Numbered from the stretch's first letter, positions 10,701 to 32,909 are shown. The stretch is DNA of 64,000 nt from Alphaproteobacteria bacterium (GCA_017528205.1 JAFXPE010000004.1:15079-79078), one strand, 5' to 3'. Numbers and translations are program-made. The notes: a model not told the origin generated them from the letters alone.

Positions 10701-13700
10701 GCATTATCCATATTTTGCGGAACATCTCCGGCATCTTGCTGCTTTTGCTTTACTCCTCCCGAAAATGCAGCGGCGCCTTCAATATCAACTTTCTGATTAT
10801 AAGTAGTGGCATTAACGGCCAAATTTGTTGCCTCAATGTCAGAATTTTCTATGCTTGCTCTGACATTTCGGTCAATTGAGGTTGTGTTTACACTTGCGCC
10901 AACGGCTATGCCTGAAGAACTTTGTTCGCCGTCTTCAACCTCTTCTTTTTGTTGCGCCAAGGAACCCTGAACAATTATATTGGTGATTTCATCTTTAGCT
11001 TCTCTTGGATAGGTTATTGCGGGATCAACTTGCTGTTCTTTTTCCTCCGGAGTTAACTCTCTTTGTTGTTTCCACTTTATCTCATCGGTTTTATCATCTC
11101 TTTTGAGGTTTCCACCGGTTGTTCTAATGGTTGCTTTTCCGGCATTTACTTCAATATTATCGGCAACAACCGTATGGTTGTCTTTAATATTTGATATCTT
11201 GGCAATGGTATCTCCGCTGATTTTTTGAATATGAATAGAGCCGTCAACCCCGATTTTTTCCGATTTACCGCCGGTTATAATGATGTTCATATACGACTGC
11301 TCGGTTGCACTGTCAACGTTTATATTGCCCTCTTCGGCTTTAACCGTTGAGTTATCAATCATGGCTGTTGCATGATTGGTATAGTTATCAAACACAAAAT
11401 TGGCTCCGATACCGGCTTTGCCGCCCTCAACAGTCGGCTCATATTCCCAATCTTGTTGCCCCGGAAGTTTATAGTTGAGTTTTTTTATTAAAATATCAAC
11501 GAGTCCGGCGCCGTTATATCCGATAACCGAATTAACCGCATTAACAACAACATCGCCGTCTACCGTGATATCGGAATTGTTTTGAATGGCCGCTATGGTA
11601 TTGGTATTAACCTCGTTATACACCACCGCCGCCGAAGCCGATGCGGTGCCGCCAACCGAATTTGTTTGGGCAAGGTTATTAAAGAAACCCGCCATTTTGA
11701 ATTTCGGTTTCAGTCCGGAATAACTTGCTATAATATTTTGTTCGGCTAATCCGGATACTTCAAAAACAGGTGCTGTATCATCGGCTTTCGGTGTTGCCGG
11801 AGAAACGCTCCACTTTCCGTTAGCTTCGGAAGCAAATCTGCCGCCCACAAAAAAGCTGTCCATCCCCATAATCTTGAAAGGAAACCGCATTCCGAAAGTA
11901 AGACTTCCGACATTCATCGGCAGTTCGGTGGTTGCGTCGACCGTAACATTTTCCGCCTCAATTTTTGACTTATCGATAATCGCTTTTGTGGTATTGTTTT
12001 GTTCACTTAAAATAAGGGCAACCGAAACGCCGAACTTGGCCTCGCCTTGCGTATCCGATGTAGCGGTATTGGTAAGCAAATCAACCGCATTCGCTCTGAT
12101 GATTACATCACCGTCTGCCTTAACTTTAGAATTTTCAATGGTTGCGGTTGTATTATTATTGGTATTGTTGTGAACAACGGCACCGCCGAGTTCAAGCGCT
12201 GCATTGTCGCCTTCTTTGCCAACAACAGGTGTTTTGCCTTTTATTTTGTTGAATATATTAAGTTTGAAGAATTTACCTTGCAATTCCTTTAATTTTTTAT
12301 TCATTGCGGCATCAAAGGTTTTCGGTTTTTGCACCATCATATCAAGAACGCTGCCGTCGGGGGCGTTTTCGGTTTTATGCAAACTTTGCGCCAGAACGGT
12401 CGTATCTTCCGCGGTTGTAATTTCGCTGTCTTTTATACGAGCGGTTACGTTATTATTTGAACGATTTAATACAACGCCGGCCGAAGATGCACTGTTGGCG
12501 GCATCATCAGGTTTATTCGGGTCTTTTTCGCCGGCAACTGCTTCTATGGAAATTTCCGCGTAACTGTCGGATAAATTTGTGGCAAACACGCTCAAATTGT
12601 CAGCCTCAACCGTTGATTTTATGATTGATGCCTCGGTATCGGTTTTAACCGTATTGTTTAAGAACATCAAAAAGAAACCTTCTTCCAGCTTTATCGAAAA
12701 AAGGCTGTCCGAGGTGATAACCGTTGAATTTTCGTTTGTGGAAACGGCGGTTACATCAATATCGCCGTTAACAGCGTTCAAAACAGAATCTTTGACGATT
12801 GCTTTTGACACCGTTTCGGTGCCAACCGCGTAAATACCGACCGGCAATATAAAGGCCAGCAATCTGTTATTGGCATCTAAACTTGATGAAGCCTCGGTTG
12901 ATATTTCAATATTTTTAGCAGCATCTCCAACGGCATTAATGGTGGAACCTTCAACATTAACAATCGCCGAACTTTTGGCTCCCTCAAAATGTTTATAAAT
13001 CTCAGAACTGAAATATTCTGCAAAATAAGAATCTCCGCTGAATATGTAATCAATTATCGTCGGGGTTAAAAAGTTTGCATTTTCGCTGGTTTCACTTGAC
13101 GCTTCAGCATGAATGAAAACGGATAAATCAGGATTTTCCGCATCAGACGCGGTTGCTTTCAGGGCATTTATAATTGAATACCTTACATTTACTTCAGCTT
13201 CGGCTTTACCGGCCACTCCCCAAAGCGATGTTACCGGAGGGATATCGGAATCCGGCGATAAAACAAGATCTTCCAGAGTGTTGATAATAAATTCAACATC
13301 ATCAACCGGATTGGCGGCATCAAAATCCTTTTTCTGTGTGGCTGTTGCAACCAAAGAAACCGTATCTCCCGTTATATTGGAATTTACAACATTAACGCTG
13401 GCTTTTGCCAAATCCACTTTCTGTTGTCTGTCCACCTCTGAGTTTGCGGAAATATCAATTTCATTGGCAGCAATATCGGCCTGATTAATGTCCACTTTGG
13501 TTGTTAATTGTTTGTCATTTCCCGAATCAAAGCCATATCTTTTATTGGCTACAATCTTTATCTTTCCGCCTTCCAAGCTGAAACCGTCGGCATCGGTAAT
13601 ATTATTTGCTACCAAACTGTCAAAAACTTGTTTGGCTTGCTGCTGTGTCATAACCTTTTTTGGGTTCTTCACGCCGGCAACAATTCCGGCTCTGGAGCCG

Positions 13701-14356
13701 TATTCTCCGGCGACTGCAACATCTTTACCGTAAAGTTCCACATCTCCTTTGGCCATAATTTTACCTTTTACGGTAATGACGCCTTCCGAATTTTTCAATA
13801 GCTCATTATATTTTTCGGCTCCGTGTTCATAGTCAGACAGATGATAGGATAAATCGCCGTCATAAGCGTGCTTTAAATCGTTATATTTACCCAGTGTTGG
13901 TGTAGCCATTGTCAGCGAGCCGACGTTCAAAACGCCCGAAGCTCCGACCACAATGCCGTTTGGCGAAACAAAAATCGCATGCCCGTTATAAAAATTGTTG
14001 CCCTTAACCGTGTTGACAATACCGTTAATATTAACCTGATTGTCTACCATATTTACAAATTTATTATAGCCCTGATCAAATTTTAAGTTTGCCACATCGC
14101 CGTTATCCAGAGTAAAATCCGTATACTGTCTGAAACCCGTGTTACCGGAAACTTTCGCCGCATCAATATTATAAACCCCGTTATTGCCCGAAACTCCGGT
14201 AATGTTTGTGGCAAACACCGGGGTAACATCTAAAAACATCATACTGTATGCCGTTATAAACGACACAATCTTGCGAAACAATGACGGCTGTTTAAACACA
14301 ATTTCCTGCGATTTTTTAATATGGATTTTCTTTAAACGTTTAGTGGCTTTAGACAT
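1739..14356 (-). CDS. Giant two-partner-secretion exoprotein (TpsA / filamentous-hemagglutinin-like adhesin), 4205 aa
   Basis: The N-terminus has a signal-like segment and a TPS secretion domain: N-x-x-G-x-x-x-N-I... then ...FVSPNGIVVGASGVLNVGSL, which is the NPNG-type motif. Thousands of residues of Gly/Asn/Ser/Thr/Val-rich beta-helical repeats follow. There is an acidic D/E plus K/N low-complexity insert mid-protein and a distinct ~90-aa C-terminal domain. Confidence 0.85.
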   Translation of the reverse strand: MSKATKRLKKIHIKKSQEIVFKQPSLFRKIVSFITAYSMMFLDVTPVFATNITGVSGNNGVYNIDAAKVSGNTGFRQYTDFTLDNGDVANLKFDQGYNKFVNMVDNQVNINGIVNTVKGNNFYNGHAIFVSPNGIVVGASGVLNVGSLTMATPTLGKYNDLKHAYDGDLSYHLSDYEHGAEKYNELLKNSEGVITVKGKIMAKGDVELYGKDVAVAGEYGSRAGIVAGVKNPKKVMTQQQAKQVFDSLVANNITDADGFSLEGGKIKIVANKRYGFDSGNDKQLTTKVDINQADIAANEIDISANSEVDRQQKVDLAKASVNVVNSNITGDTVSLVATATQKKDFDAANPVDDVEFIINTLEDLVLSPDSDIPPVTSLWGVAGKAEAEVNVRYSIINALKATASDAENPDLSVFIHAEASSETSENANFLTPTIIDYIFSGDSYFAEYFSSEIYKHFEGAKSSAIVNVEGSTINAVGDAAKNIEISTEASSSLDANNRLLAFILPVGIYAVGTETVSKAIVKDSVLNAVNGDIDVTAVSTNENSTVITSDSLFSIKLEEGFFLMFLNNTVKTDTEASIIKSTVEADNLSVFATNLSDSYAEISIEAVAGEKDPNKPDDAANSASSAGVVLNRSNNNVTARIKDSEITTAEDTTVLAQSLHKTENAPDGSVLDMMVQKPKTFDAAMNKKLKELQGKFFKLNIFNKIKGKTPVVGKEGDNAALELGGAVVHNNTNNNTTATIENSKVKADGDVIIRANAVDLLTNTATSDTQGEAKFGVSVALILSEQNNTTKAIIDKSKIEAENVTVDATTELPMNVGSLTFGMRFPFKIMGMDSFFVGGRFASEANGKWSVSPATPKADDTAPVFEVSGLAEQNIIASYSGLKPKFKMAGFFNNLAQTNSVGGTASASAAVVYNEVNTNTIAAIQNNSDITVDGDVVVNAVNSVIGYNGAGLVDILIKKLNYKLPGQQDWEYEPTVEGGKAGIGANFVFDNYTNHATAMIDNSTVKAEEGNINVDSATEQSYMNIIITGGKSEKIGVDGSIHIQKISGDTIAKISNIKDNHTVVADNIEVNAGKATIRTTGGNLKRDDKTDEIKWKQQRELTPEEKEQQVDPAITYPREAKDEITNIIVQGSLAQQKEEVEDGEQSSSGIAVGASVNTTSIDRNVRASIENSDIEATNLAVNATTYNQKVDIEGAAAFSGGVKQKQQDAGDVPQNMDNAQDKADNKSVDNSISEAPKDDDDDESVDDETYFRELLKKKKNNNNEDDDDDSIIDKILDQFSLSVAGAVDVTQDDTKVEASVNDSELTIGKDLEINAVRGVKNILLGGAVAKSNKNGAGAAVAYNNQSGSVKSLINNSDIEFADSNSQLVLNADNKNWLLNISIGAGASVNSDEENKGFQSAVGGSLNINTLEPEIVAAIENSSIGTDDYAKNVDVDIKAKNKVDVYNIAGGGAYLSGNGSNGVGAGAAVNYNNIKNNISAYIANSTLENINNLSVLADADNNMNDFAIAGSLVTGAETGWAFDGSADINYVHDTVKAKIMGSTITAKKDITVKANSNSNNLDAAGTIDILTTGSGAGVNGDVVINLFANDVTAEIGDSYKVGANLVPVTDQQTDILRAKDINVAATSTEKVNNILAGAAVSTGGSYLMAAANVNVNLVDNAVKAYVSGNFGIGRSTNFINGLNVAAYDETTIYTRGATVSAAASQEAATVIAGSVNVDKLTKNVEAKIIDADVNARGDVTATAASVNSLGGTKNDNNQYSRDDVTSKEYREKLLHKDTSGLYDGLQMKNGVALDQDSDFVNWNMFFDVAGGSNIAVAGAGIGKVIANFVTAEISNSAIKADNLYVLADDYSIKNIIAGTISGSLKGAAGLSVLYTKDKSTTSALIGNGSELDILRNLTLDAANKKDNHQILITGSGAIKGSINANIAINNVEDKVFAVIDNQTKNKEIYAGNINLNANEDINAAHIVVSGGGASNMVLDVNPIVNTYDATVEAAVKKANLKDAAIALKAQSKIDSLDVSAGVAGVAKGFAGVGVAIKNDYTGNIKSYIDNAVIDTKQNIDIDANSVINANNWVVGGSAAAQGASITVNALLNNVDTTLEAGIKNSEIENADVISINTNKDKTDSFDNNAIAAALAGQGASAIVNVIKNDFTNSVTSYVDNTKSAEIGSLEVIANSDRRTNNINFGLIVTGQGAGLAANALVNDINSTTRSYVDTKSKTLNVERNLDVKSNDTAAARNSVVMGSLAGLGGTVGLNINLYNANNLVKSEILSATAGQVNAGSVNMNSELTNALDNTQVDLSLGLAAVPIDVQVIKIGQKTNTYSKAEQVSDVKKYLNTAFSMIPQGLPTPTTPSNNLQTGAISSVNGNIKTALDTNINAKSRIRGLAKQNGKDVLTDELDLNSFTLVGALGSASVGVRDVQIANNTIAEIKGGKVESTDGDVALKAESASKVKMTNMRAEVSGLQVSGGSDIYENSSETLAQIRDATVNAHSIGVNSKSKSHATIDTTHIAGAIGSVVNVDLVEANDTNKTVSLITGNTNINAKDKLILHSTVDTDLQSLKLSVPIAGASLVSVMKNDATANTISKAIIENVNGAIKTNGLDIITDYDNMSVTARSNIVSVKAISVAEYNDSGAFMNAYFKSGIDSLDGLTLKNTGTTNIITARGNNQKDVSAYGRTHDVSVQLAGIYTGTFAHAETNATSATVLKVKNHTSNKLNLDQYLNSKAKADANGTKVTVAGVYAVAAAATDKSKMTLDVGGNNTIITPSHINLKHNATTEADLKAFNLGLLVAGSRIRVDSDMEADTFANIGGNFNVKDNNININIDTIRNAKLDKTSGTGGLINIADTGMSNTLKGKSILNLTNLKTDDKQDKNRFFINNRSINTYQVKTTDGSGGFINVSDTSATSTFNTSTETNIENADVNSQSDFSMLTQDTTAIEDNASNAGGGLFISYVGDKANNSYSSTAKINIKNSNIKAKDLKLQADSSVTAKDLKDISYTGDTGGFVAIGAINVTNNITNTSEINIQNSALEATHNAVLEAITGSYFKQKIENEADGFVSVAKGTSNLNVTNNNKITIDNKSTILANNELEIDFNSSNTLVSRVVSDVVNIGGEPVAKSYLNLTINNTLENSGTLQAGNLMDINFMNSSTNTLTQFAQAVSRAAIATTAEDGKLTRTINNKLDNKANADITSGKDIDINYSNGIGETNSVIYWVTKSGWGVITDSGQSSKYDLSSKHNLNNNGKITAAVNNSKYMKINRDGSVDKTTLKGFHDGDYILNDGAIIDGAKIKEQKLSEIDIELENVNGTINEYENTIANYNTLVAKLNQQKADAEATLNELTAFIENGAVLLESKTGNSGIYAGISAFDLKMQKDMGCVRQTNTDPGYAGKITQAEYNTLMQDYTTALNNNPNLTMAEFLNASDYGFSNAQKNNIVKGYNDVKSRLSITLHGFAKYIGKDGITYLAALNPTGEGAAQSCKNMLDLNSKIEDIANQIKSIQYIKANGTALLEDLRDERAKLTAEYNAIWETPADEYSYSGEDYSLVFNDIRINPNGAEINVHGLTNANITGNGVFDIAKSGLQIDNYSTRSLVFNDININTETANSSLIINDKEQTEFANKPQAISGQKANEYFYGSSSIWKQNNERPSFDSLPTTGVHFTVSNTKFVGTTINNYYDNNHPLADTLDIPNSTIASDITINGDINTGVLNILNESGNIAIQSSNIDTGNLNLFATNGQIDIETHNDENNAKFTLNAGSKIFAADGLNITADEVDIKSGSNIQTGYSLRGIKITDNMLKEENLIVDPTTGEKNLLDLGGNRLSPNLNDGVIKGNIKAIYKNGQIYVYNLPELEADNGIKIVANKGTVKGVMTVSTGPQTIEINNETDKPLIVGDIANTSIDGAYSVEGGATSKANLTTQKAIKAKTDIISEGKVALNGKIVNGIDAKIGTPSEDGELTVKAKNGIDIAKHQTYDAITAGGLIDIANTQNGALNIYGNITNKKGNTNLYGSDGISLFGKIHSVDGDVSMTAREGDLLLAKGSQIHIDKGNLSLNQQDVFGNLIMAGQIILRDGNLTTYSLGNETNNGLIFGREFMDENDLSDLIPANSNEPEVDYALNNNMGYGYDVTGDKDLKSSVKILRLHREGATIVNENHWKVGDKMEFSIAFDGVDVVAKCKVIKAENGIAQVMFLDLPRSVATKITERYMNKGLFHQWASN

Positions 14357-16161: not shown

Positions 16162-16875
16162 TTAATAGAACTTCCATTCTATTGAAGCAGTAGCCCCATT
16201 GGAACCCCTAGCGGTCTTACCGCAGCTAGAAGTCGCACTAGCCACAGAAACTGGAAAGCCTTTCGCTCCGTCGTTAGGTCCTTGATTTTTGTTAACCATG
16301 CAGTGAATACTTCCCCAGACTTCACTTTGACCTGTACACGCATTTACATATTTATTCGCCACAGAAACGGCTTTAGTCCTCGCAGCAATACTCATAGCAA
16401 TCAAACCACCGCTTTTAGTTGTTCCTCCCCAGTCAACCAAAGCCAATGCAATACATGCCTCAATCGGAATATCATCAAACGATATGTGGAATGCATCTTT
16501 ACGTGTTGTTTTTTTATAATTTTTCTCAGATGCATTGAAACGAACAGGTGTACCCCATGGAGTTTGATATGTATTTGTTCCGTTACCATCCTTGCTGGCA
16601 TACATATCATCCGGTACAATATTGAATTTATCAATAATTTTACCACCTATTCCCGTACCATCACCCAATGAAGAATAGTCTTTTGAGTTTCTGAAAGCCC
16701 TACGCATATTGCTGACAACTAGAGTGATTTGTTCAATCGCCTTATTGGTCTTATACCTATTCATAGCTTTAGAATAACCGGCAAGACCACCAACGGACAG
16801 TACACCGATAATAGCCAAAACGCCAAGCATCTCAATCATCGAACGACCTTGTTCTAAATTTTTATTATTAATCAT
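16162..16875 (-). CDS. Type IV pilin-like protein (prepilin-type N-terminal cleavage/methylation domain)
   Basis: The N-terminus QGRSMIEMLGVLAIIGVLSVGG matches the class III signal (G/xxxE followed by a hydrophobic helix) of type IV pilins and pseudopilins. The Gly/Thr/Ser-rich C-terminal half has Cys residues. Confidence 0.7.
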   Translation of the reverse strand: MINNKNLEQGRSMIEMLGVLAIIGVLSVGGLAGYSKAMNRYKTNKAIEQITLVVSNMRRAFRNSKDYSSLGDGTGIGGKIIDKFNIVPDDMYASKDGNGTNTYQTPWGTPVRFNASEKNYKKTTRKDAFHISFDDIPIEACIALALVDWGGTTKSGGLIAMSIAARTKAVSVANKYVNACTGQSEVWGSIHCMVNKNQGPNDGAKGFPVSVASATSSCGKTARGSNGATASIEWKFY

Positions 16876-19343: not shown

Positions 19344-19994
19344 TCAGCGACTGACAAATGCTACGATTTCTTTTTGCAAGAGGCGGAACACATTGGCCAC
19401 CAGATATCCGTCGGCAATTGCGTGATTTAAGCGAACGCTCACCGGCATAACCAGTCTGCCGTTTTCTTCGCGATATCGTCCCCAGTTCACGATGGGCGCA
19501 AAGAACAAATAGCCGTCCGGCAACTCAATATTCAACGAATCATACGAAAGCCACGAAATGTATGAGGCATCAAACCAATTCGGATGATTTTCCATATCCA
19601 ACCCGTAATCACGCGTTTGCTTTGCCGTCTCCATATCTTTCAGCGCGCCGGCATAAAACGTGTCATAGTCCTCGTAATATTGCGTGTAAACCGGCGTACA
19701 GGTTTCCGTATCTTCATGAAATACATATTGCGTGGGGTTGACCATATCATAGCAGATAAGCTCGCCCGTCTGCCAAAGATAGCCCATGCGATAATCTTCA
19801 CGCGAATTCATTACTTTGGCAAGGATATACAGAAAATTCAAATAGAATTTCGAACTCGTCCGCTTTGACCAGGCTGCAAGCTCGGTCACATCTATTCTGG
19901 CAGTCATAGAAGTGGAGCATTTGCAGTCTTCCGAAAAGTGACGAAACACACCCTTGCGATAATACGTTTCTTTATCAATGACCTTGTAGTTCAT
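19344..19994 (-). CDS. cat: Chloramphenicol O-acetyltransferase, classic (type A) CAT fold
   Basis: Colinear similarity to CAT_I along the whole protein, including the catalytic-His region ...SVRLNHAIADGYLV... (compare MAIQVHHAVCDGFHV) and ...LFFAPIVNWGRY...; 216 aa. Confidence 0.8.
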   Translation of the reverse strand: MNYKVIDKETYYRKGVFRHFSEDCKCSTSMTARIDVTELAAWSKRTSSKFYLNFLYILAKVMNSREDYRMGYLWQTGELICYDMVNPTQYVFHEDTETCTPVYTQYYEDYDTFYAGALKDMETAKQTRDYGLDMENHPNWFDASYISWLSYDSLNIELPDGYLFFAPIVNWGRYREENGRLVMPVSVRLNHAIADGYLVANVFRLLQKEIVAFVSR

Positions 19995-21109: not shown

Positions 21110-22267
21110 ATGGATATTTGGGACGAAATTAAAAAACTGTCCGGCTACCAATCCGGTCACGGCGGAGTGGATAGTTACGGTGTTGACCACAGCGGATTTT
21201 CAACGCGTGATGAGTTGGAATATCAAAGCGCACGATTAGCCAGAGAAAATCAACTGGCGGAAGGTTTTGCTAAGCAAGGAATTGCCGAAGAAAACTATCC
21301 GCAGTTCGGCACAAACTTTTGGGAAGGAACGCCTGAAAATAACTACGGCTTCGGCACTTCAAACATTAAGCAAAATATCGAAAATGTTACAAATCAGTTG
21401 AATAACAGCGGATTTGGTGGCGGAGTGAATAATAGCGGATTTAACGCCAGCGCAAATAACGGACAAGTCACTACAAATTCCGACTATACGGTCAACACCG
21501 AAAGTCTAGTCGGCAAACCGAGCAGTTATTTTCAGAATAATAGTGCAAGCAATACTTTGGGAGGCAATGCAAGTGGAGCATTGAATCAAAATGGTAGCGG
21601 TAACAGTATCAACTATGATAATTATGCAATGCGACAGGACTTAGAAAATAATATCAAACGAGAACAGGAAAGAGCGCAGCGACAAAGCTTAATACCTCCT
21701 TCTAACAATTCTCAGATAACGCCTATTCCTTCAGGAAAACCACTAACTTCGCAAGAAGCGTCCTATATGTTCACACCGACACACCCTGATTATGGCCAAA
21801 TAGGTTCATTGGAATTTGATGGGCAAAATTTGGTTTGGTTGCAAAATGGTCAACCGGTAAAGTATTATCCGGCACAATCCGGTCATAATGATTATCAAAG
21901 CGCTAAATATACCAATGTCTCTAATGAGGGGCCAATACCAGAAGGTGATTATCAGCTTAATCAAGGAACCGGACAGGATTATGAGGAAAGTTTATGGTAT
22001 AAAATCAATAGGAACATGTGGCCTCGTCCTATCAGAAAGAATTGGACGGTCACGCCTGCTGGTTGGGGACATCAACGTATTCCTATCCAACCATTACCAA
22101 GCACGAACACTTTAGGGCGGCATAGTATGTATGTTCATGGAGGAGATAACGGATTTGGCTCTGCGGGCTGTATAGATTTAGAAAGAGGTATGCCTAATTT
22201 CTACGACGACTGGCTAAAATATAACGGGACTTTACCTCTTAAAGTCAAATACAAGAAAGGTTGGTAA
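21110..22267 (+). CDS. DUF2778/Tlde1-like L,D-transpeptidase-fold protein (putative peptidoglycan-targeting toxin) with a Gly/Asn/Ser-rich N-terminal region
   Basis: The C-terminal ~130 aa contain ...GPIPEGDYQL... and the catalytic-type motif ...YVHGGDNGFGSAGCIDLE... (H-G-G...G-S-x-G-C) of the YkuD/Tlde1 family. The N-terminal 250 aa are low complexity. There is no signal peptide. A strong RBS (aggagg) precedes the start. Confidence 0.55.
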   Translation: MDIWDEIKKLSGYQSGHGGVDSYGVDHSGFSTRDELEYQSARLARENQLAEGFAKQGIAEENYPQFGTNFWEGTPENNYGFGTSNIKQNIENVTNQLNNSGFGGGVNNSGFNASANNGQVTTNSDYTVNTESLVGKPSSYFQNNSASNTLGGNASGALNQNGSGNSINYDNYAMRQDLENNIKREQERAQRQSLIPPSNNSQITPIPSGKPLTSQEASYMFTPTHPDYGQIGSLEFDGQNLVWLQNGQPVKYYPAQSGHNDYQSAKYTNVSNEGPIPEGDYQLNQGTGQDYEESLWYKINRNMWPRPIRKNWTVTPAGWGHQRIPIQPLPSTNTLGRHSMYVHGGDNGFGSAGCIDLERGMPNFYDDWLKYNGTLPLKVKYKKGW

Positions 22268-25162: not shown

Positions 25163-26374
25163 TTAATTTTTCGGGAAAAATACCGAGTGCAACAAATTTA
25201 CGTCTTCCGGACTTCTGGTGATTTTTATTTTGCCCGATTTATAAATGTGGCAAACCACAAACGGAGCATATCCCCAAAATGTGGAATAAACATCGGTATA
25301 AGCACCAGCACCGCCGATTATTATATCATCGCCGATTTGTACCGGCTGACTGATATGTGTATTTTCAACAATGTTATTGGCACCGCTGGTGATGCCGTCC
25401 GTAATTCCGATATTTTCGCCCCCATCGCTCGGAAGCGGGTGCAAAAGTTCATAACGCGCGTTTTGGTTCGGAATAAGAACATTGGTGCCGATGTCCGTAA
25501 TCAGCCATTTTTTGTTTTTTATCTGTTTAATATCAATCACTTTACCCAAAACATATCCGGCGGAAGCGGATAAAAAACGCCCCGGTTCCAGCACCAATTT
25601 CTGAGGCGAGAACAGCTTGGCAAATTCATCTGCCACGGCGGTAAATAACTTCTTCAGTTTATCTTCACGGTTTGCGGAATAAACCTCAATGCCGCCGCCC
25701 AAGTCAATTCTTTGCGGCATAATAGCGTATTTTTGCTTTATGTCGGCCAAATGCTCTCGCAAAATTTTCATTGCCGCGATATAGGGTTCGGAACACAACT
25801 CGTTGATTGTAAAATGCATATGAACAATATCCCATTTTGCCCGTTTTTCATTTTGAATGAGCGCGATAAACTCTTTATAAACCTCTGAATCGACATAATT
25901 TCCCAGTTTATTTTTTTGGTTTGAATAAGGAGTGGCAACCTGCAATCCGCCGGCATCAAAACGCAACCTTATTCCCAATTGACAGCTTGCTTTAGGGTGT
26001 GCGGCCAAATAGTTTTTGACAATGCCCAAATCGCGCAATGTATCCACAATAAGCGTTGTGTTCTTTTGCTTTAGAGCCTTCATCAAACATGCCTCCGAAC
26101 GCCCTAAACCGTTGAGAATGATTTTTTTGAATTTGGCTCTCTGCGCCAAATCAAGCTCAAGCTCCGACATAACTTCCGCACCCAAACCGCGCCGCGCAAA
26201 ATAGCGCAACAAGTTGAGGTTATAACAACTCTTGACCGCAAAATAAATATCGGAATTTTTTAAATATTCGGATATCAGAGCAACTGCTTTTTCCGCCTCA
26301 TTCTCATCATAGAACATAACCGGTGTATTCAAGTTATGAGCAACAAGAAAGTTTTTTAAGGCCGAAATGTTCAT
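25163..26374 (-). CDS. PLP-dependent decarboxylase, fold type III (Orn/DAP/Arg decarboxylase family 2)
   Basis: PLP-lysine motif YFAVKSCYNLNLL, glycine-rich phosphate loop IDLGGGIEV, and the C-terminal EPGRFLSASAG motif. It overlaps the upstream Dcd-like gene by 4 nt. Confidence 0.75.
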   Translation of the reverse strand: MNISALKNFLVAHNLNTPVMFYDENEAEKAVALISEYLKNSDIYFAVKSCYNLNLLRYFARRGLGAEVMSELELDLAQRAKFKKIILNGLGRSEACLMKALKQKNTTLIVDTLRDLGIVKNYLAAHPKASCQLGIRLRFDAGGLQVATPYSNQKNKLGNYVDSEVYKEFIALIQNEKRAKWDIVHMHFTINELCSEPYIAAMKILREHLADIKQKYAIMPQRIDLGGGIEVYSANREDKLKKLFTAVADEFAKLFSPQKLVLEPGRFLSASAGYVLGKVIDIKQIKNKKWLITDIGTNVLIPNQNARYELLHPLPSDGGENIGITDGITSGANNIVENTHISQPVQIGDDIIIGGAGAYTDVYSTFWGYAPFVVCHIYKSGKIKITRSPEDVNLLHSVFFPKN

Positions 26375-26889
26375 TTAAAATCCTCACTTGTTTTTGAAAT
26401 TTGCGGCCCATGGCTGTGTTGATATTTGCCGTTGTACAACACAATTTCTCCCTTGGGAACCCAAAAGCTCACCTGAGCAATTTTCATACGCGGATATACA
26501 ATAACCGGCAAGGTTGAATATAATTGCAAGGTTAAGTTGCCCACCGAGCCGATATCAATTAAATCGGCCGTGATATGCACAAACAATCCCGAGCGCGCCG
26601 TTCCGGATTTTGCGTGCAATATCGGCACAAAATGTTCGCTGCCGATTTCTTCTACGGTGCTCCCCAAATAAAATTCGTTTTTTTCAATCAAAAAGCCTTC
26701 CGGAGGAATATCGATAATTTCAAAATTGGGCTTTTTCTTAGGATCCAGCACTTCGTCGGTATAGCGTATCAGTTTATCGGCCAGACAAACGTCATAAGAG
26801 TTGGTTGTGACCTGTTCTTCGTTAAACGGCGAAATAGTGATGTTGCCGTTTAAGGTTTCTTTGATTATTTCATTACCGCTCAAAATCAT
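26371..26889 (-). CDS. dCTP deaminase/dUTPase-fold protein, paralog 1 (predicted catalytic Glu replaced by Gln)
   Basis: Colinear with Dcd: MILSGNEIIKETLNGNITISPF...SYDVCL... and ...ARSGLFVHITADLIDIGSVGNLTLQLYS... (compare Dcd [26 protein letters not shown]). It is 172 aa. Confidence 0.7.
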   Translation of the reverse strand: MILSGNEIIKETLNGNITISPFNEEQVTTNSYDVCLADKLIRYTDEVLDPKKKPNFEIIDIPPEGFLIEKNEFYLGSTVEEIGSEHFVPILHAKSGTARSGLFVHITADLIDIGSVGNLTLQLYSTLPVIVYPRMKIAQVSFWVPKGEIVLYNGKYQHSHGPQISKTSEDFK

Positions 26890-27392
26890 AGCTTTTCAAC
26901 CTTCAATTGCTGTGTCGGGAGGTTATATTTGGCATAAGTAAAAGCATGCTCATATATTTCTCCGTAATTATCCCAAAACGTTACCTGCCCTATAATCATT
27001 CCCGCATACAACCGGATAGGTTTTGCGGCAACAAGTTCCAAGGTCCATTGGTGGAAAGACTTTGTATGCCCCAAATTTGCCGAAACTTGCAAAAACAGTC
27101 CCAAACGTCCCATAGAGCTACGCCCGATTAAAGACATGGCATATTTTTTGCTACCGATAATTTCTTTGGTGTGTCCTAAATATAAAACATGAGGCTTGAG
27201 AACATAACCTTCGGGCGGAATAGTCACATCTTCGAAAACCGGCTGACCGTCTTGCATTTTTTGAAAAACTTTGAGCATACTCCCCAAGCGATAATTATAA
27301 CTGTTGGGGTTGACTTGATTTTCATAAAAAGGTACCAGCGATATATTACCTTTTTTTTGCTCAGAAATTATTGCTTTTCCGGTCAGAATCAT
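26886..27392 (-). CDS. dCTP deaminase/dUTPase-fold protein, paralog 2 (Glu retained: ...WTLELV...)
   Basis: MILTGKAIISEQKKGNISLVPF...SYNYRLG... and ...GRLGLFLQVSANLGHTKSFHQWTLELV...; 168 aa. It overlaps both neighbours by 1-4 nt. Confidence 0.7.
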   Translation of the reverse strand: MILTGKAIISEQKKGNISLVPFYENQVNPNSYNYRLGSMLKVFQKMQDGQPVFEDVTIPPEGYVLKPHVLYLGHTKEIIGSKKYAMSLIGRSSMGRLGLFLQVSANLGHTKSFHQWTLELVAAKPIRLYAGMIIGQVTFWDNYGEIYEHAFTYAKYNLPTQQLKVEKL

Positions 27393-28198
27393 CAGAACAA
27401 TTCCACAAAACGATTAGGATAAACATTTTTACGATATCTTAAAACCAAAACGGCATAAGATTGATACGGACGCAATTTATTAGACATTTCTTTGATTTTA
27501 TACAATCTATCAAACATTGCCTGTTTCAGCGCAATATCGGTTATATTTCTGATTTTACAAGCACGGTCGATGGTGCAGCGGCAATAATATTGCAACTCGT
27601 CTTCCGTTTCCGGATACAAGTCATTCCGGTCCTCATAAATAATTTCCAGCTTGTTGAACATGGACATAATGTCTTTATATCCGGCCGTAGTTGGAGATAT
27701 ACCGAATACTGTCTTAAATTCTTCAATCAACTCGCCTGGTATCGGTTGTTTGATATAAAACGGAGAAGCCAATAAATATCCGCCGTCTTCGATAAATTCC
27801 ACCGTTTTTTTTATGGCTTCCTGCGGATTGGCAAAAAATTGATATCCTGCTCCTATGATAACATGTGAGAATTTTTCATCTAACTTGAGTTTGGTGCCGT
27901 CGGCAACAAAATAATCTATTTTTGCATTCGGCGCATAGTGCTGCAAATTATAATTTGCCATTTCTATTGCCTCAGACGATAAGTCAAACGCCTTGCCCGA
28001 GCATCCGGTAAGCGTGGCAAGTTCGCGAGATTGAAAACCGGTGGTGCAGGCAAATTGCAAAATTCGCGAATTGGCATTCATACGCGAAAAAGTTGCCCAT
28101 TTCGACAGAGTAACATACGATCCGGGTAAAACATTCCATTGATTAATATATCCGACAAAATCAGGATAAGACATTTCATTCAATTGCCTAATATCCAT
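27392..28198 (-). CDS. Class I SAM-dependent methyltransferase
   Basis: Motif I-like region ...VLQFACTTGFQSRELATLTGCSGKAFDLS... within a Rossmann-like pattern. The start was set at the internal ATG (MDIRQL) preceded by a GGGGAGA RBS. Confidence 0.6.
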   Translation of the reverse strand: MDIRQLNEMSYPDFVGYINQWNVLPGSYVTLSKWATFSRMNANSRILQFACTTGFQSRELATLTGCSGKAFDLSSEAIEMANYNLQHYAPNAKIDYFVADGTKLKLDEKFSHVIIGAGYQFFANPQEAIKKTVEFIEDGGYLLASPFYIKQPIPGELIEEFKTVFGISPTTAGYKDIMSMFNKLEIIYEDRNDLYPETEDELQYYCRCTIDRACKIRNITDIALKQAMFDRLYKIKEMSNKLRPYQSYAVLVLRYRKNVYPNRFVELF

Positions 28199-28342
28199 CT
28201 TTTTCTCCCCGTAAAAAAGCAAATTTACAATATTTCATCAGCACGTCTTATACCATTCATCATCGCAATTTTCAAGAATTTTTTCTTGATTTATTTAATT
28301 ATCCGTGATAGCTTGTTTTGTAATGTATTTTGGGGATAAAAT

Positions 28343-29284
28343 ATGCACAAAATTCAAAGAGTAAATTTCAATATTTTTCCTGAGAAACTGTTTGCGTTTG
28401 CAAAGTTTGACGAATTTTTGGTTGACGATACTTATTTATACCTCAGAACCTACGGGCACGAAGGAAAATATGAATTTGACAGCGCCATTTCTCCTTTTGA
28501 AAATATGATACAAGCCACAATACGCTTTATAAATTCGGTTCTGACGCCGGAGCGAATGCAATTGTTTGCCCAAACCGTAAATCCGTCGGCCATAATTTTA
28601 CCGGTTCACGGTTTTCATTATATCGGTTGTTCAAACAAAGTTTATACCTTTGAAACCGATAACACCAGCTCAAATTTAATGACCGTATTGACCACCATCA
28701 AACTTCATCATGCGCTGGGCATGGATTATTCTTTCAGCTGTCGACAGTTGGAAAAAGTTTCGCGCAATGCCTCGTCTTTAATTCATCGCATTGCCAACCC
28801 TACTCCGCTTGATGCCGATATTGTTAAGGGCAAAGAATATATTGCCTTTGATGACCATATCCATTCCGGCAGCACGGTGGCAAATTTGCTGGGAGTTATT
28901 GCGGCCAAGCAAGGCCAATGCAACACTATAATGTGTTTGGCCACCAATCCCATTGTTAAAAAACTGAAGTTGCGGCAATCCACATTGGATAAAATCAGAA
29001 CAAATCCGCTGTATTCTTCTTTAGAAAGCAAGTGGGCGGACTTATTCGGGTTTGATTTTGCGGGCTTAACCGAGGTTGAAGCGAAGTTACTGCTGAATAA
29101 CTACGTTAAAAAGAATATTGACGTTATCGCCGAAATCAAAAAATATAATCCGGCCGAATATGTCCCGACTTACGATAAATCCCTGTGGCCAGTTCTTACG
29201 GCCAAAGAAACTTATAACAGCCTGAGCGAACTCGGAATGCCCGGCTATGGAATTAAACTTATCAATACGGCACAAAAAATATGA
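28343..29284 (+). CDS. Hypothetical protein with a type-I phosphoribosyltransferase-like PRPP-binding motif
   Basis: ...KEYIAFDDHIHSGSTVANLLG... matches the hydrophobic-x4-D-D-x-x-x-S/T-G-x-T PRPP loop of type I PRTases. The rest of the protein is not classifiable by eye. Confidence 0.35.
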   Translation: MHKIQRVNFNIFPEKLFAFAKFDEFLVDDTYLYLRTYGHEGKYEFDSAISPFENMIQATIRFINSVLTPERMQLFAQTVNPSAIILPVHGFHYIGCSNKVYTFETDNTSSNLMTVLTTIKLHHALGMDYSFSCRQLEKVSRNASSLIHRIANPTPLDADIVKGKEYIAFDDHIHSGSTVANLLGVIAAKQGQCNTIMCLATNPIVKKLKLRQSTLDKIRTNPLYSSLESKWADLFGFDFAGLTEVEAKLLLNNYVKKNIDVIAEIKKYNPAEYVPTYDKSLWPVLTAKETYNSLSELGMPGYGIKLINTAQKI

Positions 29285-30057
29285 ATCACCGGCAACACAT
29301 AACCGATATTTTGAATGCTTACAGAAAGAAAAGTATTGTTCCCGACAGCAATTTTTCGGTTGCTTGCGTTATTGAAGACACCAACCGCAATCTTTACCCC
29401 GGCGCCAACATAGAATTTATCGACCGCACGCTCGGAATATGCGCCGAAGGAGCCGCTATTTGCAAAATGCTTGCGGAGCGCGGCTATCAGGTTATTCAAA
29501 ATATTTGGCTGATGGGAGGTGACGCTCAACCGGCCGCGGATATGCCGGAAGATATGCTTTTTCCTTGCGGCATCTGTCTGCAACGGCTGGGTGAATTGGC
29601 GGCAAAAGATGCGAAAGTAAAGATAATATCCCCTATCGATAATCATCTCACCGATTTCAATTTGAGTGATTTGTTACCTCATATCAATAAGTTTACCGAC
29701 TATTTTGATTTTAAACCTTATGATTTATGCGGAGAGCTTGATTTTAACGATATCCCCTCCGCGTTGCAAATGCTTAAGGCCAGAAGTTTTATTCCGGACC
29801 GTAAAAAAAACGAGGCGGTGATTTTGCAAACTCAAGGCAATCACTTTTGTTATGGCGTATATTTTGCAACCTGTTGCTACAAGGCCGATATTCCCGCCAT
29901 AAATATGGCCATGTATAATTATTTGTTGTCGGATTATGCGACGGAAAAAATCTCGCGGGTATATTATTCTGCCGAAAATTCTTTGTTGCAAATTCATCCG
30001 GAATTTTCTAAACTCTTAAAAGATGCGGTTTTGACGGAGATAAAAATTGAAAACTGA
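29281..30057 (+). CDS. Cytidine/deoxycytidylate-deaminase-fold (CDA) zinc enzyme, two-domain architecture
   Basis: Zinc-ligand motifs C-A-E (...RTLGICAEGAAICKM...) and P-C-x-x-C (...LFPCGICLQRLGEL...) in the N-terminal ~125 aa. A second degenerate CDA-like half follows, as in dimeric two-domain Cdd. It overlaps the upstream gene by 4 nt. Confidence 0.65.
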   Translation: MNHRQHITDILNAYRKKSIVPDSNFSVACVIEDTNRNLYPGANIEFIDRTLGICAEGAAICKMLAERGYQVIQNIWLMGGDAQPAADMPEDMLFPCGICLQRLGELAAKDAKVKIISPIDNHLTDFNLSDLLPHINKFTDYFDFKPYDLCGELDFNDIPSALQMLKARSFIPDRKKNEAVILQTQGNHFCYGVYFATCCYKADIPAINMAMYNYLLSDYATEKISRVYYSAENSLLQIHPEFSKLLKDAVLTEIKIEN

Positions 30058-30496
30058 GTGCAATGACATTTATTCTTTGATTTTATTTAAGCCCGATGTT
30101 TATTCGCGAAACCTCAGCGATGCCATTTTGCAAGAATTTCATAACAACGGTTTGGAAGTCGTTTATCATAAAAAAATGCAACTGACCGAAAAAATGTTAC
30201 GCGCCTATCAACCTTTGCTCAACGAGCCCGACGATTTTGGCGAAACGGCATGGCAGTATGACATTATAAACGCATATACCCGCGTGCCGACCGATGTTTT
30301 TTTGTTAAAAGGGCCGAATGCCCTTGAAAAAACCAATGAAATCAAACAATATTTGCGCGATAAGTATATTCCCGGCGAAAATAAGTATATCATCTATAAT
30401 TTGCTGCATACGGCTGATGATGCGGCTGATTTGGAACTTAATGTCGGTGTGCTTATTCCGGAAAAGCTGGATTTGCTTAAAAAAAGGAGAGATTGA
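30047..30496 (+). CDS. Divergent nucleoside-diphosphate-kinase (NDK)-fold protein
   Basis: ...LILFKPDVYSRNLSDAILQEF...GLEVV... (NDK: [25 protein letters not shown].LV) and an active-site-His-like motif ...YNLLHTADDAADLE... (NDK: NIIHGSDSVESAEKE). Confidence 0.55.
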   Translation: MKTECNDIYSLILFKPDVYSRNLSDAILQEFHNNGLEVVYHKKMQLTEKMLRAYQPLLNEPDDFGETAWQYDIINAYTRVPTDVFLLKGPNALEKTNEIKQYLRDKYIPGENKYIIYNLLHTADDAADLELNVGVLIPEKLDLLKKRRD

Positions 30497-30497
30497 G

Positions 30498-31505
30498 ATG
30501 GAAAATTACGAGAAAATCAAAGAAATAAGAGACAGTTTTCTGTCGTTTTATATGATGGCCGGATATAAGTGTGTTGATCCGGCGCCGCTCATTCCCGAAA
30601 ATGACGACACCATTTATTTTTCAAATTCCGCCATTGTGCCGTTCAAAAAATATTTGCAAACCGACTGTCCGAGACTGACCGTTGCGCAAAAGTGTTTACG
30701 CTTTAGGGGCGGCAAAAATTTGTATGATTTGAACGAGCACCCTTATGTGCCTTATTTTAATATGGTCGCCTCAATAACCAACGCCAAACATTGTCAAGAA
30801 GTTGCGGAATTAACGCAGGATTTTTTGTTAAACTCGTTGAATATTCCGGAAAATAAATTATATGCCGATGTTTCTTCTCAAGACCCGGTTATTATCAAAA
30901 ATTTTGAAAAATATTTTGATTTGCACGTTGATAAATTGGAGCAAGACGAATATCGTTGGGGTTTCGGCATAAACGGGGTACACGGCAGAGGGTTGTGCTT
31001 TTCCATGCGTTACGGCGACAACAAAACCGGAGATTTGGGGCAAATTATTCAAATTAACTCCGACAACAACAAAACCAACTATGCCTTTGGGTTCGGAATT
31101 GAAAAGTTTATAAAGATGTCCGAAAATCTTGACCATTTTTACGAAGCCACCTCTATTTACGAAATTACAAAAGATATCCAAGGGCCTTTGGCTTGGCGCT
31201 ATATGAGTTCGTTGTCGTCTTTGTGTTATTTATACAGTCAGAATATTGATTTTGAGGACCCGAAGCATAAAAAACAAAATAAAATTGTCTCGTCATTATT
31301 GCATCAGGTGGCGGTTGTTTCCGAGCTTATGGACATTCCGCTTTCTAAAATTAACGCCGATGCCTACAAATTTTCGATGGTTGAGCTGAACAAAAAAACA
31401 AACGTAGATGCCCTGTTGCGTGATATAAACAACAGAAAGCAAACAACGCGGCACGACAAAGAGTTTCAGCAAATCAGCCGACAATTATCGAGCAAGACGT
31501 ATTAG
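30498..31505 (+). CDS. Stand-alone alanyl-tRNA-synthetase catalytic-core paralog (class II aaRS-like amino-acid ligase, ~335 aa; no tRNA-binding, editing or C-Ala domains)
   Basis: Colinear with the AlaRS N-terminus: [44 protein letters not shown] ~ [63 protein letters not shown] ~ [36 protein letters not shown] ~ W..[26 protein letters not shown] ~ TGMGLERIAAVL. The start is set at MENYEKI, with an aaggaga RBS and a 1-nt gap after the NDK-like stop. Confidence 0.65.
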   Translation: [335 protein letters not shown]

Positions 31506-31647
31506 ATACGCGGGTAATTTTTGCGCATTGTGACGGCACTTCTTCTGCCGTTATTCTCGGCTTGACCGAGTGTCTTTAGAAAACCGGCCATTCTTTCCGC
31601 CGGAATGAACAGCGCCGTAAGTGTTGCAACAACTTTAATGTTAACAG

Positions 31648-31748: not shown

Positions 31749-32165
31749 ATGAAGGAAATCAATATGTATAAATATTTAATTGCTCTTTTTGTTTGTTGTT
31801 TTGCGTTCAACGCCTCGGCCGCCACTTCGGAGATTTTGCAAAAATCGCAAAGTTCTTGGAACAACGCCCCGATTAAGCAGATGAATTTAACCGAGCCGGA
31901 AGTGACAGTTGTGCGTATTCAAATTCCGCAAGGCGAAAAATTGCCGCTGCATCAGCACCCGATTTTGAACGTCGGCTATCTGACCAAGGGCGAGTTGACC
32001 GTGCATACCGAAGCCGGCGATGTTTTGATTTTGAAGGCCGGAGATCCGATTATCGAGGTTATCGACACTTGGCACTACGGCGAAAGCACCGGCAATGAAG
32101 ATGCCGAAATCGTGGTGGTTTATGTGGGCAATAAGGGCGATACCTTTACCGAAACCAAAGAATAG
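31749..32165 (+). CDS. Secreted cupin-domain protein
   Basis: A signal peptide, then ...PQGEKLPLHQHPILNVGYLTKGELTVHTEAGDVLILKAGDPI..., which is a cupin two-His motif pattern. Confidence 0.5.
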   Translation: MKEINMYKYLIALFVCCFAFNASAATSEILQKSQSSWNNAPIKQMNLTEPEVTVVRIQIPQGEKLPLHQHPILNVGYLTKGELTVHTEAGDVLILKAGDPIIEVIDTWHYGESTGNEDAEIVVVYVGNKGDTFTETKE

Positions 32166-32207: not shown

Positions 32208-32909
32208 ATGAAGACAATTGTTGCCATCGGCGGCGGAGAAACCGGTCGTGTCATAAAATCAGAAGACGGTACGGAATATCAAACGCCGCTGGAAACTACA
32301 CCTATCGACAAATTGATTATTCGGTTGGCTAACAAGCCGCACCCAAAGGTTTTGTTTATTGGTACGGCAACGCACGATAAACCCGCGTATCCGGAGTTTA
32401 TACGCCGGCAATATGTTGGAAATTTGGGCTGTTCCTCTCTTGAAACTTTGTGTATAGAAACCGAACACCTGTCTTTTGACGAGATAAGAAACAAGGTGCT
32501 TGCCGCTGATATAATTTATGTCGGCGGGGGCGATACGACGCATATGCTGAAAGTGTGGAAAGAGCAGCAACTCGACGTGATTTTGCGCGAGGCTTACGAA
32601 AAAGGTGTTATTTTGGCGGGCATATCCGCCGGAGCCATTTGTTGGTTTGAATGGTATGATAATATGGATGACATCGACACCATTGATGATTTGGCGTTGG
32701 TGCCGGGGCTCGGTTTTGTAAAGGAATTCGGCGTTCCGCACTATAATTGGCTCAGCAAAGAAGAGCGAGACAAAATAAATTTGCTGCTGAAGGCAAAGAA
32801 TATTTCCGGCATTGCCATAGACGATTGCGCGGCCGTTGTTTTTAGGGATAATAACATCGAGTTTATCTCTGATGCCGATTATGGCTCAACCGTCAGATAC
32901 ATTCCGTAA
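32208..32909 (+). CDS. Peptidase S51 (dipeptidase E / cyanophycinase-like) family protein
   Basis: MKTIVAIGGGE...VLFIGTATHD...IIYVGGGDTTHMLKVWKE...ILAGISAGAICWFE... (the Ser-nucleophile GxSAG context). The start was set at ATG 32208, with a gaggaa RBS. Confidence 0.65.
   Translation: MKTIVAIGGGETGRVIKSEDGTEYQTPLETTPIDKLIIRLANKPHPKVLFIGTATHDKPAYPEFIRRQYVGNLGCSSLETLCIETEHLSFDEIRNKVLAADIIYVGGGDTTHMLKVWKEQQLDVILREAYEKGVILAGISAGAICWFEWYDNMDDIDTIDDLALVPGLGFVKEFGVPHYNWLSKEERDKINLLLKAKNISGIAIDDCAAVVFRDNNIEFISDADYGSTVRYIP

Follow-up and report, generated by a model that had tools for sequence, protein, structure and literature searches.

A rare gene cluster with a divergent cytidine deaminase and an NDK-fold protein as a candidate aminoacyl-nucleotide pathway of the microcin C or ascamycin kind

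The classic natural inhibitors of aminoacyl-tRNA synthetases (aaRS) are mimics of aminoacyl-adenylate, a group to which microcin C, ascamycin, agrocin 84 and albomycin belong. All known compounds of the microcin C type require, to our knowledge, both MccB and a ribosomal peptide. Here we analyze a rare gene cluster on a contig of an Alphaproteobacteria bacterium (GCA_017528205.1, JAFXPE010000004.1:15079-79078) that may follow a different logic. We refer to the whole stretch of 64,000 nt as the window, count all coordinates from its first letter, and use L-numbers (L001 and so on) for contigs that encode relatives of the cluster proteins. The two genes on which the analysis centers encode a two-domain cytidine deaminase (CDA) and a divergent protein with the nucleoside diphosphate kinase (NDK) fold. 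Together with the preceding gene, encoding a phosphoribosyltransferase (PRTase)-fold protein that we call X, they would form the accessory nucleotide-handling block of a cluster making a non-hydrolysable aminoacyl-nucleotide of the microcin C or ascamycin kind, without MccB or a precursor peptide. We assign this reading a probability of roughly 0.55.

Two described systems bear most closely upon it. AcmF, from the ascamycin pathway, is a truncated enzyme resembling alanyl-tRNA synthetase (AlaRS) that lacks the activation residues and carries a D232E change; it moves alanine from Ala-tRNA(Ala), made by its paralogue AcmD, to the nitrogen of a nucleoside sulfamate (PMC12945691). In microcin C systems, MccF cleaves aminoacyl-nucleotide amide bonds, and processed microcin C is detoxified by S51 peptidases of the MccG type, which are thus proven immunity enzymes; moreover, mcc operons are noted to lose such functions easily and to acquire substitutes (PMC9239234). 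The genes of the cluster in the window, with protein lengths in amino acids (aa), are the following.

25163-26374, minus strand: pyridoxal phosphate (PLP)-dependent decarboxylase of fold III (PF02784, 73 bits; TIGR01048, 134 bits, under its cut-off)
26371-26889, minus strand: dCTP deaminase (DCD)-like protein a (DCDa), 172 aa (PF22769, 117 bits)
26886-27392, minus strand: DCD-like protein b (DCDb), 168 aa (PF22769, 96.5 bits)
27392-28198, minus strand: MccD homologue, 268 aa (sole match among Protein Data Bank, PDB, entries is MccD, 5fcd; start taken as the ATG at 28198, which gives the length found in all relatives)
28343-29284, plus strand: X, PRTase-fold protein (predicted fold), 313 aa (phosphoribosyl pyrophosphate, PRPP, loop YIAFDDHIHSGST)
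29281-30057, plus strand: two-domain cytidine deaminase (CDA), 258 aa (PF00383, PF08211)
30047-30496, plus strand: divergent NDK-fold protein, 149 aa (PF00334; TTG start)
30498-31505, plus strand: truncated AlaRS paralogue (the AlaRS core), 335 aa (PF01411, 67 bits, profile positions 1-167 only)
31749-32165, plus strand: cupin-domain protein (PF07883, 43 bits), of uncertain membership in the cluster
32208-32909, plus strand: Peptidase S51, candidate immunity peptidase of the MccG type (PF03575, 131.5 bits)

The same gene set recurs in unrelated neighborhoods, in L001-L008 and L012-L014, with CDA identities of 49-98%. Its layout is conserved: the minus strand carries the PLP decarboxylase, two tandem DCD-like genes and the MccD-like (class I methyltransferase-like) gene, and the divergent plus strand carries X, CDA, the NDK-like gene, a Peptidase_S66 gene and the AlaRS core of about 335 aa. 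The S66 gene has been cleanly lost from the window and from its 98% relatives L012 and L013, and is retained in the 88% relative L014; the direct adjacency of the NDK-like gene and the AlaRS core in the window is thus a result of this loss. The first-pass annotation, made from the sequence of the window, had proposed from the tight coupling of these genes a dedicated pathway acting on a cytosine or uracil nucleotide. The dedicated pathway, with its PRTase-like gene and AlaRS core, is borne out, and the restriction to a cytosine or uracil nucleotide is not: the divergent operon also holds the MccD homologue, the PLP decarboxylase and two DCD-like proteins, to which relatives add an S66 peptidase of the MccF type.

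The link to microcin C is most evident in the MccD homologue, by homology a predicted SAM-dependent 3-amino-3-carboxypropyl transferase. Its single PDB match, to 5fcd, spans nearly its full length (E=5.8e-29), and it is 28% identical to MccD from the E. coli mcc plasmid (E=2e-34). When it was searched against plasmids by tblastn, 27 of the 44 matches lay on E. coli plasmids, and the one examined carries an mcc operon. The decarboxylase matches the N-domain of E. coli MccE at 26% identity (E=4e-17) and E. coli LysA at 23% (E=3e-17); being equally similar to LysA, it owes its MccE-type assignment to the operon that it shares with the MccD homologue. The S66 peptidases of the relatives find their best structural match in the MccF-type 5f5x (E=1.6e-92) and are 27% identical to E. 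coli MccF (E~1e-19), with weaker similarity to murein LD-carboxypeptidases (E~1e-4 to 4e-12); the Ser/His/Glu triad is conserved in the alignment. Such MccF-clade genes are present in L001, L004, L008, L009, L014, L022, L025 and L027. In the window, an S51 gene lies about 700 bp downstream of the AlaRS core, and it is only in the S66-less lineage (the window, L012 and L013) that a cupin and an S51 gene stand beside the cluster. Genes for S51 peptidases are also found in the related AlaRS-core clusters of L018-L021, the S51 protein of the window being 36% identical to that of L020 (E=1e-38).

The AlaRS core provides the link to ascamycin. This family, which comprises about ten clusters of proteins, matches AlaRS structures in the PDB with E-values down to 2e-15. 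Alignment with E. coli AlaRS reveals that the motif-2 Arg and W170 are kept, that the segment EIWNxVFMQ (N212, V214) is deleted and that the motif-3 Arg is replaced by Lys; in place of D235 stands Ala, or Glu in the copies from L001 and L008. By analogy, we regard the AlaRS core as a candidate aminoacyl transferase resembling AcmF. Beside the cluster in L001 lies a canonical-type AlaRS paralogue of 588 aa (3484-5250; PF01411 and tRNA_SAD), which could be a dedicated supplier of Ala-tRNA or a resistant copy of the target. This paralogue and another of 436 aa in L008 keep all the activation residues checked by alignment, and L025 also possesses an AlaRS-like gene of 437 aa.

A second type of cluster is built around an AlaRS core 47-51% identical to that of the first, and is found in L018-L021 (for example, at 8344-15642 of L020). 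It contains two methyltransferases, two radical-SAM enzymes (one of them B12-binding), an unknown protein of 180 aa, a Peptidase_S51 and a GNAT/NUDIX protein. Judged by these sequences, it probably represents another pathway of the aminoacyl-nucleotide type.

Comparison of variants separates a core from an accessory block. In L022 (GCA_052833245.1), the MccD-like gene, both DCD genes, the decarboxylase, S66 and the AlaRS core form one operon from which X, CDA and the NDK-like gene are absent; in L009 the core is intact, CDA is reduced to a frameshifted remnant, and there is neither X nor an NDK-like gene. The X-CDA-NDK block is therefore accessory, being missing in the one and decayed in the other. 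The decarboxylase is conserved in L001, L004, L014, L022 and L009; in L012 (5908-7094) it is split into open reading frames (ORFs) of 267 and 126 aa by a frameshift or an assembly error. More distant variants were reached through the closest relatives of X. L025 has two DCD genes, the AlaRS core, X, an MccD-like gene, a His_Phos_1 gene, the 437-aa AlaRS-like gene, S66 and a two-domain CDA, and L026 has a CDA followed by X. L027 and L028 combine a catalytic core of the AspRS/AsnRS type with an MccD-like gene, a class IIa aaRS, S66 and X, and have no DCD or CDA gene; in L027 (1697-8260) the catalytic core, of 386 aa, is without an anticodon domain and the class IIa aaRS has one. These last variants suggest the same logic applied to other amino acids. 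We considered whether the proteins encoded after the MccD-like gene of L025 (403 aa) and of L027 (411 aa) might be hidden decarboxylases and rejected the idea, the two having no Pfam or PDB matches and being mutually unrelated; no homology was detectable for the 411-aa protein of L027. The theme that recurs across these sequences is a truncated aaRS paralogue with an MccD homologue and an MccF-type peptidase, often supplemented by X, the DCD pair and CDA. Among the variants compared, the NDK-like gene is limited to the cluster lineage of the window. Alongside the cluster in L001 we also noted genes for a Ham1p-like NTP pyrophosphatase and a DUF3850 protein (12988-13847).

Within the window, the genes are closely packed. 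The frames of X and CDA share 4 nt (ATGA), and that of the NDK-like gene overlaps the end of the CDA gene by 11 nt, just as previously noted, with a GGAG 8 nt upstream of its TTG start. One base past its stop lies the ATG of the AlaRS core at 30498, adopted in place of starts at 30318 or 30495, which were dropped. The frame of DCDb overlaps both adjacent genes, which suggests translational coupling. Purifying selection acts on every gene of the cluster (dN/dS 0.03-0.17); against the 88%-identical relative L014, CDA has 0.11 and the NDK-like gene 0.08, and both are therefore functional genes. A terminator-like hairpin (31556-31570) lies between the AlaRS core and the cupin gene.

The CDA scores 41.4 bits against PF00383 and 31 bits against PF08211, the Pfam cut-off being 25 for each. 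That it keeps the zinc ligands, as first proposed, is confirmed by the invariance of C54-A-E56 and P-C96-G-I-C99 in seven sequences; C54/E56 and C96/C99 align with H102/E104 and C129/C132 of E. coli Cdd (taken from NC_000913). The motif GAN43-I-E45-F is likewise invariant and aligns with N89/E91 of Cdd, residues that we take to be the contacts to the ribose 3'-OH and a mark of nucleoside deaminases. Its AlphaFold model (pLDDT 82) has as top structural matches the two-domain Cdd proteins 4eg2 of Vibrio cholerae and 1ctt of E. coli (E=6e-14, TM 0.66), on which it superposes across about 277 columns. The second half is indeed degenerate, as the same annotation held, having neither the catalytic Glu nor a CxxC; it has invariant CCYKAD and HPEF motifs of its own. 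Keeping all the catalytic and ribose-binding residues of true cytidine deaminases, the N-domain appears to be catalytically competent. The protein thus resembles the two-domain Cdd of E. coli, Vibrio and Arabidopsis in its active-type N-domain, with catalytic Glu, zinc site and equivalents of the N89/E91 contacts, and in its degenerate C-domain. It departs from them in that Cys, the first zinc ligand of tetrameric CDAs, takes the place of His, in lacking the N-terminal extension of about 50 residues, and in scoring only 34-48 bits against the NCBIfam models for dimeric Cdd (cut-offs 275 and 153).

The NDK-like protein is more eroded. It scores 35.3 bits against PF00334 (cut-off 27), yet the alignment covers just profile positions 3-86 of 135; homology to NDK through R105 is given a probability of 81% by hhalign. 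The phospho-His motif had been described as present but altered, and YN118-L-L-H121-TADD does align with the NxxH of E. coli Ndk and of the Pyrobaculum NDK 1xqi, the latter being a local HMMER alignment around the His motif. Invariant K15, R104, N118 and H121 fall on K11, R104, N114 and H117 of E. coli Ndk (K12, R105, N115 and H118 in the usual numbering). By contrast with these retentions, a deletion of 10 residues removes R88/T94 (R87/T93 in E. coli) and the start of the Kpn loop; of the residues that support the His, S120 is replaced by Ala or Val and E129 aligns with an invariant Asn, and there is an insertion, PLLNEPDD. Hence the description 'NDK-fold kinase' stands as to fold, on the evidence of PF00334 and the H121 motif, and its second word is unproven, given that the segment that binds the nucleotide phosphates (R88/T94) is deleted. 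Like nucleoside diphosphate kinases, the protein has the N-terminal ferredoxin-like core, the catalytic His and equivalents of K12, R105 and N115. The distant variant L025 has no NDK-like gene and does have one for a histidine phosphatase (His_Phos_1).

Both DCD-like proteins match PF22769 strongly, as do members of the dCTP deaminase and bifunctional DCD-DUT family. What distinguishes them from that family is that they occur in tandem, apparently coupled in translation, and that each has lost what the other keeps, the losses being invariant across seven loci. In alignments with E. coli Dcd, the catalytic E138 of DCDa is replaced by Gln at all seven, the Asp of the dUTPase-type IDxG motif (D128) and R115 being kept; DCDb keeps S111, R115 and E138, and has GHT(K/T)S in place of IDPGW. 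One of the pair passes the TIGR02274 cut-off. From these sequences, a division of labor or a hetero-oligomer would be the natural inference.

X scores below the threshold against Pfam and has no sequence match in the PDB even at E<=10. A phmmer search returned 236 relatives, few of them full-length; most are domains of about 150 residues within polyvalent-type proteins of 2000-5000 aa and MuF fusions. These host proteins match PF00156 (Pribosyltran), LPD39 and Phage_Mu_F, one relative (P0029) passes PF00156, and X itself matches phrog_22413 (E=1.5e-14). With its predicted model (pLDDT 88), Foldseek retrieves ComF, adenine PRTases and ShosT at probabilities of about 1.0. D170, D171 and T178 of the PRPP loop are invariant in 15 sequences. 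The original label of a PRTase-like gene is thus upheld by fold, by PRPP loop and by relatives that match PF00156. X shares its type I PRTase core and intact PRPP loop with ShosT and with the PRTase domains of polyvalent proteins of phages and conjugative elements, its sequence relatives residing in giant proteins that contain MuF and LPD domains. In contrast to those PRTases, it is a stand-alone protein of 313 aa, with additional elements at both termini; the operon around it looks biosynthetic, and it has no antitoxin partner.

The claim that neither the deaminase nor the NDK-like gene looks like a housekeeping gene is well supported. Both pass their Pfam gathering scores (PF00383 and PF00334), the profile check proposed at the outset. 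Against NCBIfam equivalog cut-offs, however, the CDA falls short of all seven cdd models, with a best score of 72.2 bits against 113.65 for TIGR01354, and the NDK-like protein reaches 29.1 bits against 155 for ndk. The two families are also exceedingly small, comprising 6 clusters for CDA and 5 for the NDK-like protein among 5.8 billion clustered proteins, and across scans of clustered proteins, viral contigs and Joint Genome Institute (JGI) metagenomes they were met solely within the one conserved gene cluster. Scans of viral contigs with CDA and X produced no relatives, and a scan of JGI metagenomes with CDA produced nothing close and one distant match. Genome contigs gave no match to the single CDA protein; an alignment-based scan of them recovered L009, a true relative, and two distant, ordinary-looking deaminases. 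One GTDB species genome, the metagenome-assembled genome UBA7488, has a relative. Plasmids yielded no megablast match to the cluster, and the 64-kb window holds no separate canonical ndk or cdd. For annotation, calls of 'cdd' and 'ndk' such as these ought to be left out of any count of salvage genes.

Homologies and gene content are what we observe; each chemical step that follows is what we infer from them. The DCD pair would process a pyrimidine nucleoside triphosphate to a nucleotide acceptor, one member being deaminase-competent and the other, with E138Q, dUTPase-like. Speculatively, the acceptor might be a 5'-phosphoramidate arising from ammonolysis at the alpha-phosphate by this pair. 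The AlaRS core would then pass alanine from Ala-tRNA(Ala) to the acceptor nitrogen, giving a mimic of alanyl-adenylate that would inhibit AlaRS. Aminopropylation of the phosphate, as in microcin C, would fall to the MccD homologue and the decarboxylase. The MccF-type S66 peptidase would shield the producer by cutting the aminoacyl-nucleotide amide bond, a role that S51 may take in the window. CDA, since it keeps the residues that recognize a nucleoside with a free 3'-OH, would convert cytosine to uracil on the nucleoside moiety or a precursor, as tailoring or detoxification. The NDK-like protein could supply or edit the nucleotide by phosphotransfer dependent on His121, and X could bind PRPP or a ribose-5-phosphate moiety.

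Several considerations weigh against this scheme. A tblastn search with E. coli MccB was negative in the window and in 14 related loci, no convincing ORF for an MccA-like precursor is present in the intergenic region 28199-28342, and the window encodes no MccC homologue, nor was a transporter called within the cluster at any locus; hence uptake and export are unexplained. By sequence, the decarboxylase cannot be called specifically MccE-like, as it is no closer to MccE than to LysA. The window has no S66 gene, and its S51 gene, lying beyond the terminator-like site, may be a coincidental neighbor. The DCD proteins are not universally required, for the clusters of the L027 type do without the pair, and that they make an N-P bond is wholly speculative. 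For CDA, the NDK-like protein and X, present data do not discriminate among the roles proposed. The likeness to AcmF is drawn from the published description of that enzyme, and the cluster is so far known from its genes. Finally, Cas9-Cas1-Cas2 genes are neighbors of the cluster in L004 and L005, a type I restriction-modification (R-M) system with Fic, an integrase and AAA_15 in L014, and type I R-M with Fic in L022, all of which fit a role in defense equally well.

These neighborhoods, with an R-M/SNF2 module beside the radical-SAM cluster of L020, invite the alternative of an anti-phage or conflict system that, on infection, would generate or exhaust an intracellular pyrimidine nucleotide, the product being perhaps a toxic modified nucleotide or an aaRS inhibitor that halts translation, with the peptidase serving as a safety valve and no antibiotic exported. 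Such a role would also agree with the PRTase domain of X, which is of the polyvalent/MuF kind and structurally resembles the ShosT defense toxin, with the Ham1-type NTP house-cleaning gene adjoining the cluster in L001, and with the failure to find an exporter or carrier peptide. As regards the biology it is a serious alternative, which we nevertheless consider rather unlikely: none of the eight cluster proteins matches PADLOC 2.0, apart from a spurious Cas8 hit at 17 bits, no sensor, nuclease or NTPase module is present, and relatives are absent from viral contigs. Variable islands hold bacteriocin and natural-product clusters too, so adjacency is weak evidence, and the biochemical reading of the MccD, MccF and AcmF counterparts would be unchanged, the difference being mainly one of biological role.

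It is also conceivable that the cluster makes no toxin and instead decorates a macromolecule or a cell-surface component, for example by adding aminocarboxypropyl or aminopropyl and alanyl groups to tRNA, DNA or a nucleotide-activated precursor, with CDA and the NDK-like protein preparing a pyrimidine nucleotide donor. Enzymes of the MccD type do use SAM as donor of an aminocarboxypropyl group, tRNA binding may have survived in the AlaRS core, L004 has a glycosyltransferase gene beside the cluster, and the missing exporter would pose no difficulty. Nonetheless, an MccF-clade S66 peptidase is conserved within the operon of all lineages examined but that of the window, L012 and L013, which makes this less likely; the S51 and GNAT/NUDIX proteins of related clusters are of the kinds that confer self-immunity to microcin C, and the extremely sparse distribution is unlike that of a housekeeping modification. 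We judge this explanation improbable. That the cluster is a mere gathering of ordinary pyrimidine salvage genes (cdd, ndk and a PRTase) might be argued from the Pfam scores of both proteins, from the full set of catalytic residues in CDA, and from the presence 8-12 kb away of PreA and GMP reductase, of pyrimidine and purine catabolism. Here the evidence is decisive enough for rejection, the idea being scarcely tenable in view of the rarity of the two families and their constant association with this gene cluster, of scores far under every NCBIfam equivalog cut-off and of the loss of the block in L022 and L009; the NDK-like protein, moreover, is without the R88/T94 segment, and the cluster lies in differing neighborhoods across genomes.

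In the window, the cluster is flanked by genes for AdhE, a monomeric [FeFe] hydrogenase, Dxs, GlyS, GMP reductase, PreA and TrhA, whose best matches are equivalogs of the enterobacterial type. These genes, together with sample names reminiscent of rumen work, suggest an island on the chromosome of an anaerobe from rumen or gut, perhaps a gammaproteobacterium. Upstream of the cluster are genes for a chloramphenicol acetyltransferase (19344-19994, minus strand; PF00302, 154 bits) and a type IV pilin like Bundlin/BfpA (16162-16875, minus strand; 46 bits). A 385-aa protein (21110-22267, plus strand) has weak matches to the YkuD L,D-transpeptidase and Tlde1 domains, the latter being a family of type VI effectors, and no NCBIfam match. 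An ORF of 4205 aa (1739-14356, minus strand) has no Pfam match at E<=0.001 and, in a BLASTP self-comparison, no internal repeats; it has abundant N, A, G, S and T residues, a signal-like N-terminal segment and an NPNG-like motif, FVSPNGIVVG. Its sequence features are probably those of a two-partner-secretion exoprotein of the FhaB/CdiA type.

An aminoacyl-nucleotide pathway of the kind that we favor would have several implications. It would constitute a second biosynthetic logic for a warhead of the microcin C type and a source, in uncultured rumen or gut bacteria, of a natural product directed against AlaRS. It would bring new enzymology in the form of a split DCD pair, an NDK derivative that retains its His and a stand-alone polyvalent-type PRTase, and would extend tRNA-dependent natural-product chemistry beyond the actinomycetes. 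A bolder and decidedly tentative version, which we think less likely than not, is that the cluster would open the first route to a warhead of the microcin C type that needs neither MccB nor a peptide. In it, a pyrimidine nucleoside 5'-phosphoramidate would be acylated from Ala-tRNA in AcmF-like fashion, the split DCD pair would form the N-P bond by ammonolysis of (d)CTP with the ammonia that it sets free, the MccD and MccE homologues would aminopropylate the product, and the PRTase-CDA-NDK block would tune the choice of pyrimidine nucleotide. The cluster might then be one of a wider, unrecognized class in gut and rumen bacteria that unites an aaRS paralogue with MccD and MccF, with AspRS-type versions such as that of L027. 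Full-text literature searches, including by way of 'PRTase-CE', returned no description of this combination of genes.

Taken together, the comparison with known systems places the cluster between two pathways. It resembles microcin C (mccABCDEF) in the pairing of an MccD homologue with a nearby PLP decarboxylase, the putative aminopropylation pair; in the MccF-type S66 of its relatives and the candidate MccG-type S51 nearby; and in its mobile, patchy distribution. The kinds of enzyme found in L018-L021, S51 and GNAT, likewise recall the microcin C immunity functions of MccG and the C-domain of MccE, and the pyrimidine nucleotide chemistry implied here has its counterpart in the McC-like peptidyl-cytidylates of Yersinia, Bacillus and Nocardia. 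Unlike microcin C, the cluster is without MccB, MccA, MccC and the GNAT domain of MccE, adds a truncated AlaRS, two DCD-like proteins, a PRTase-fold protein, CDA and an NDK-like protein, and by analogy would probably target AlaRS instead of AspRS. Its AlaRS core is, like AcmF, reduced to the N-terminal part with the activation residues gone, the D235 change paralleling D232E, and in some clusters a canonical-type AlaRS paralogue accompanies it in the manner of the AcmF/AcmD pair. Unlike the ascamycin pathway of Streptomyces, the cluster has no sulfamate or halogenation genes, its AlaRS core is shorter, at 335 aa, the acceptor would be a derivative of a pyrimidine nucleotide, and the host is probably a Gram-negative anaerobe of gut or rumen metagenomes. 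Lacking MccB, MccA and MccC, the cluster is not to be filed as a member of the mcc family; it would be a new variant among the pathways to aminoacyl-nucleotide antibiotics.

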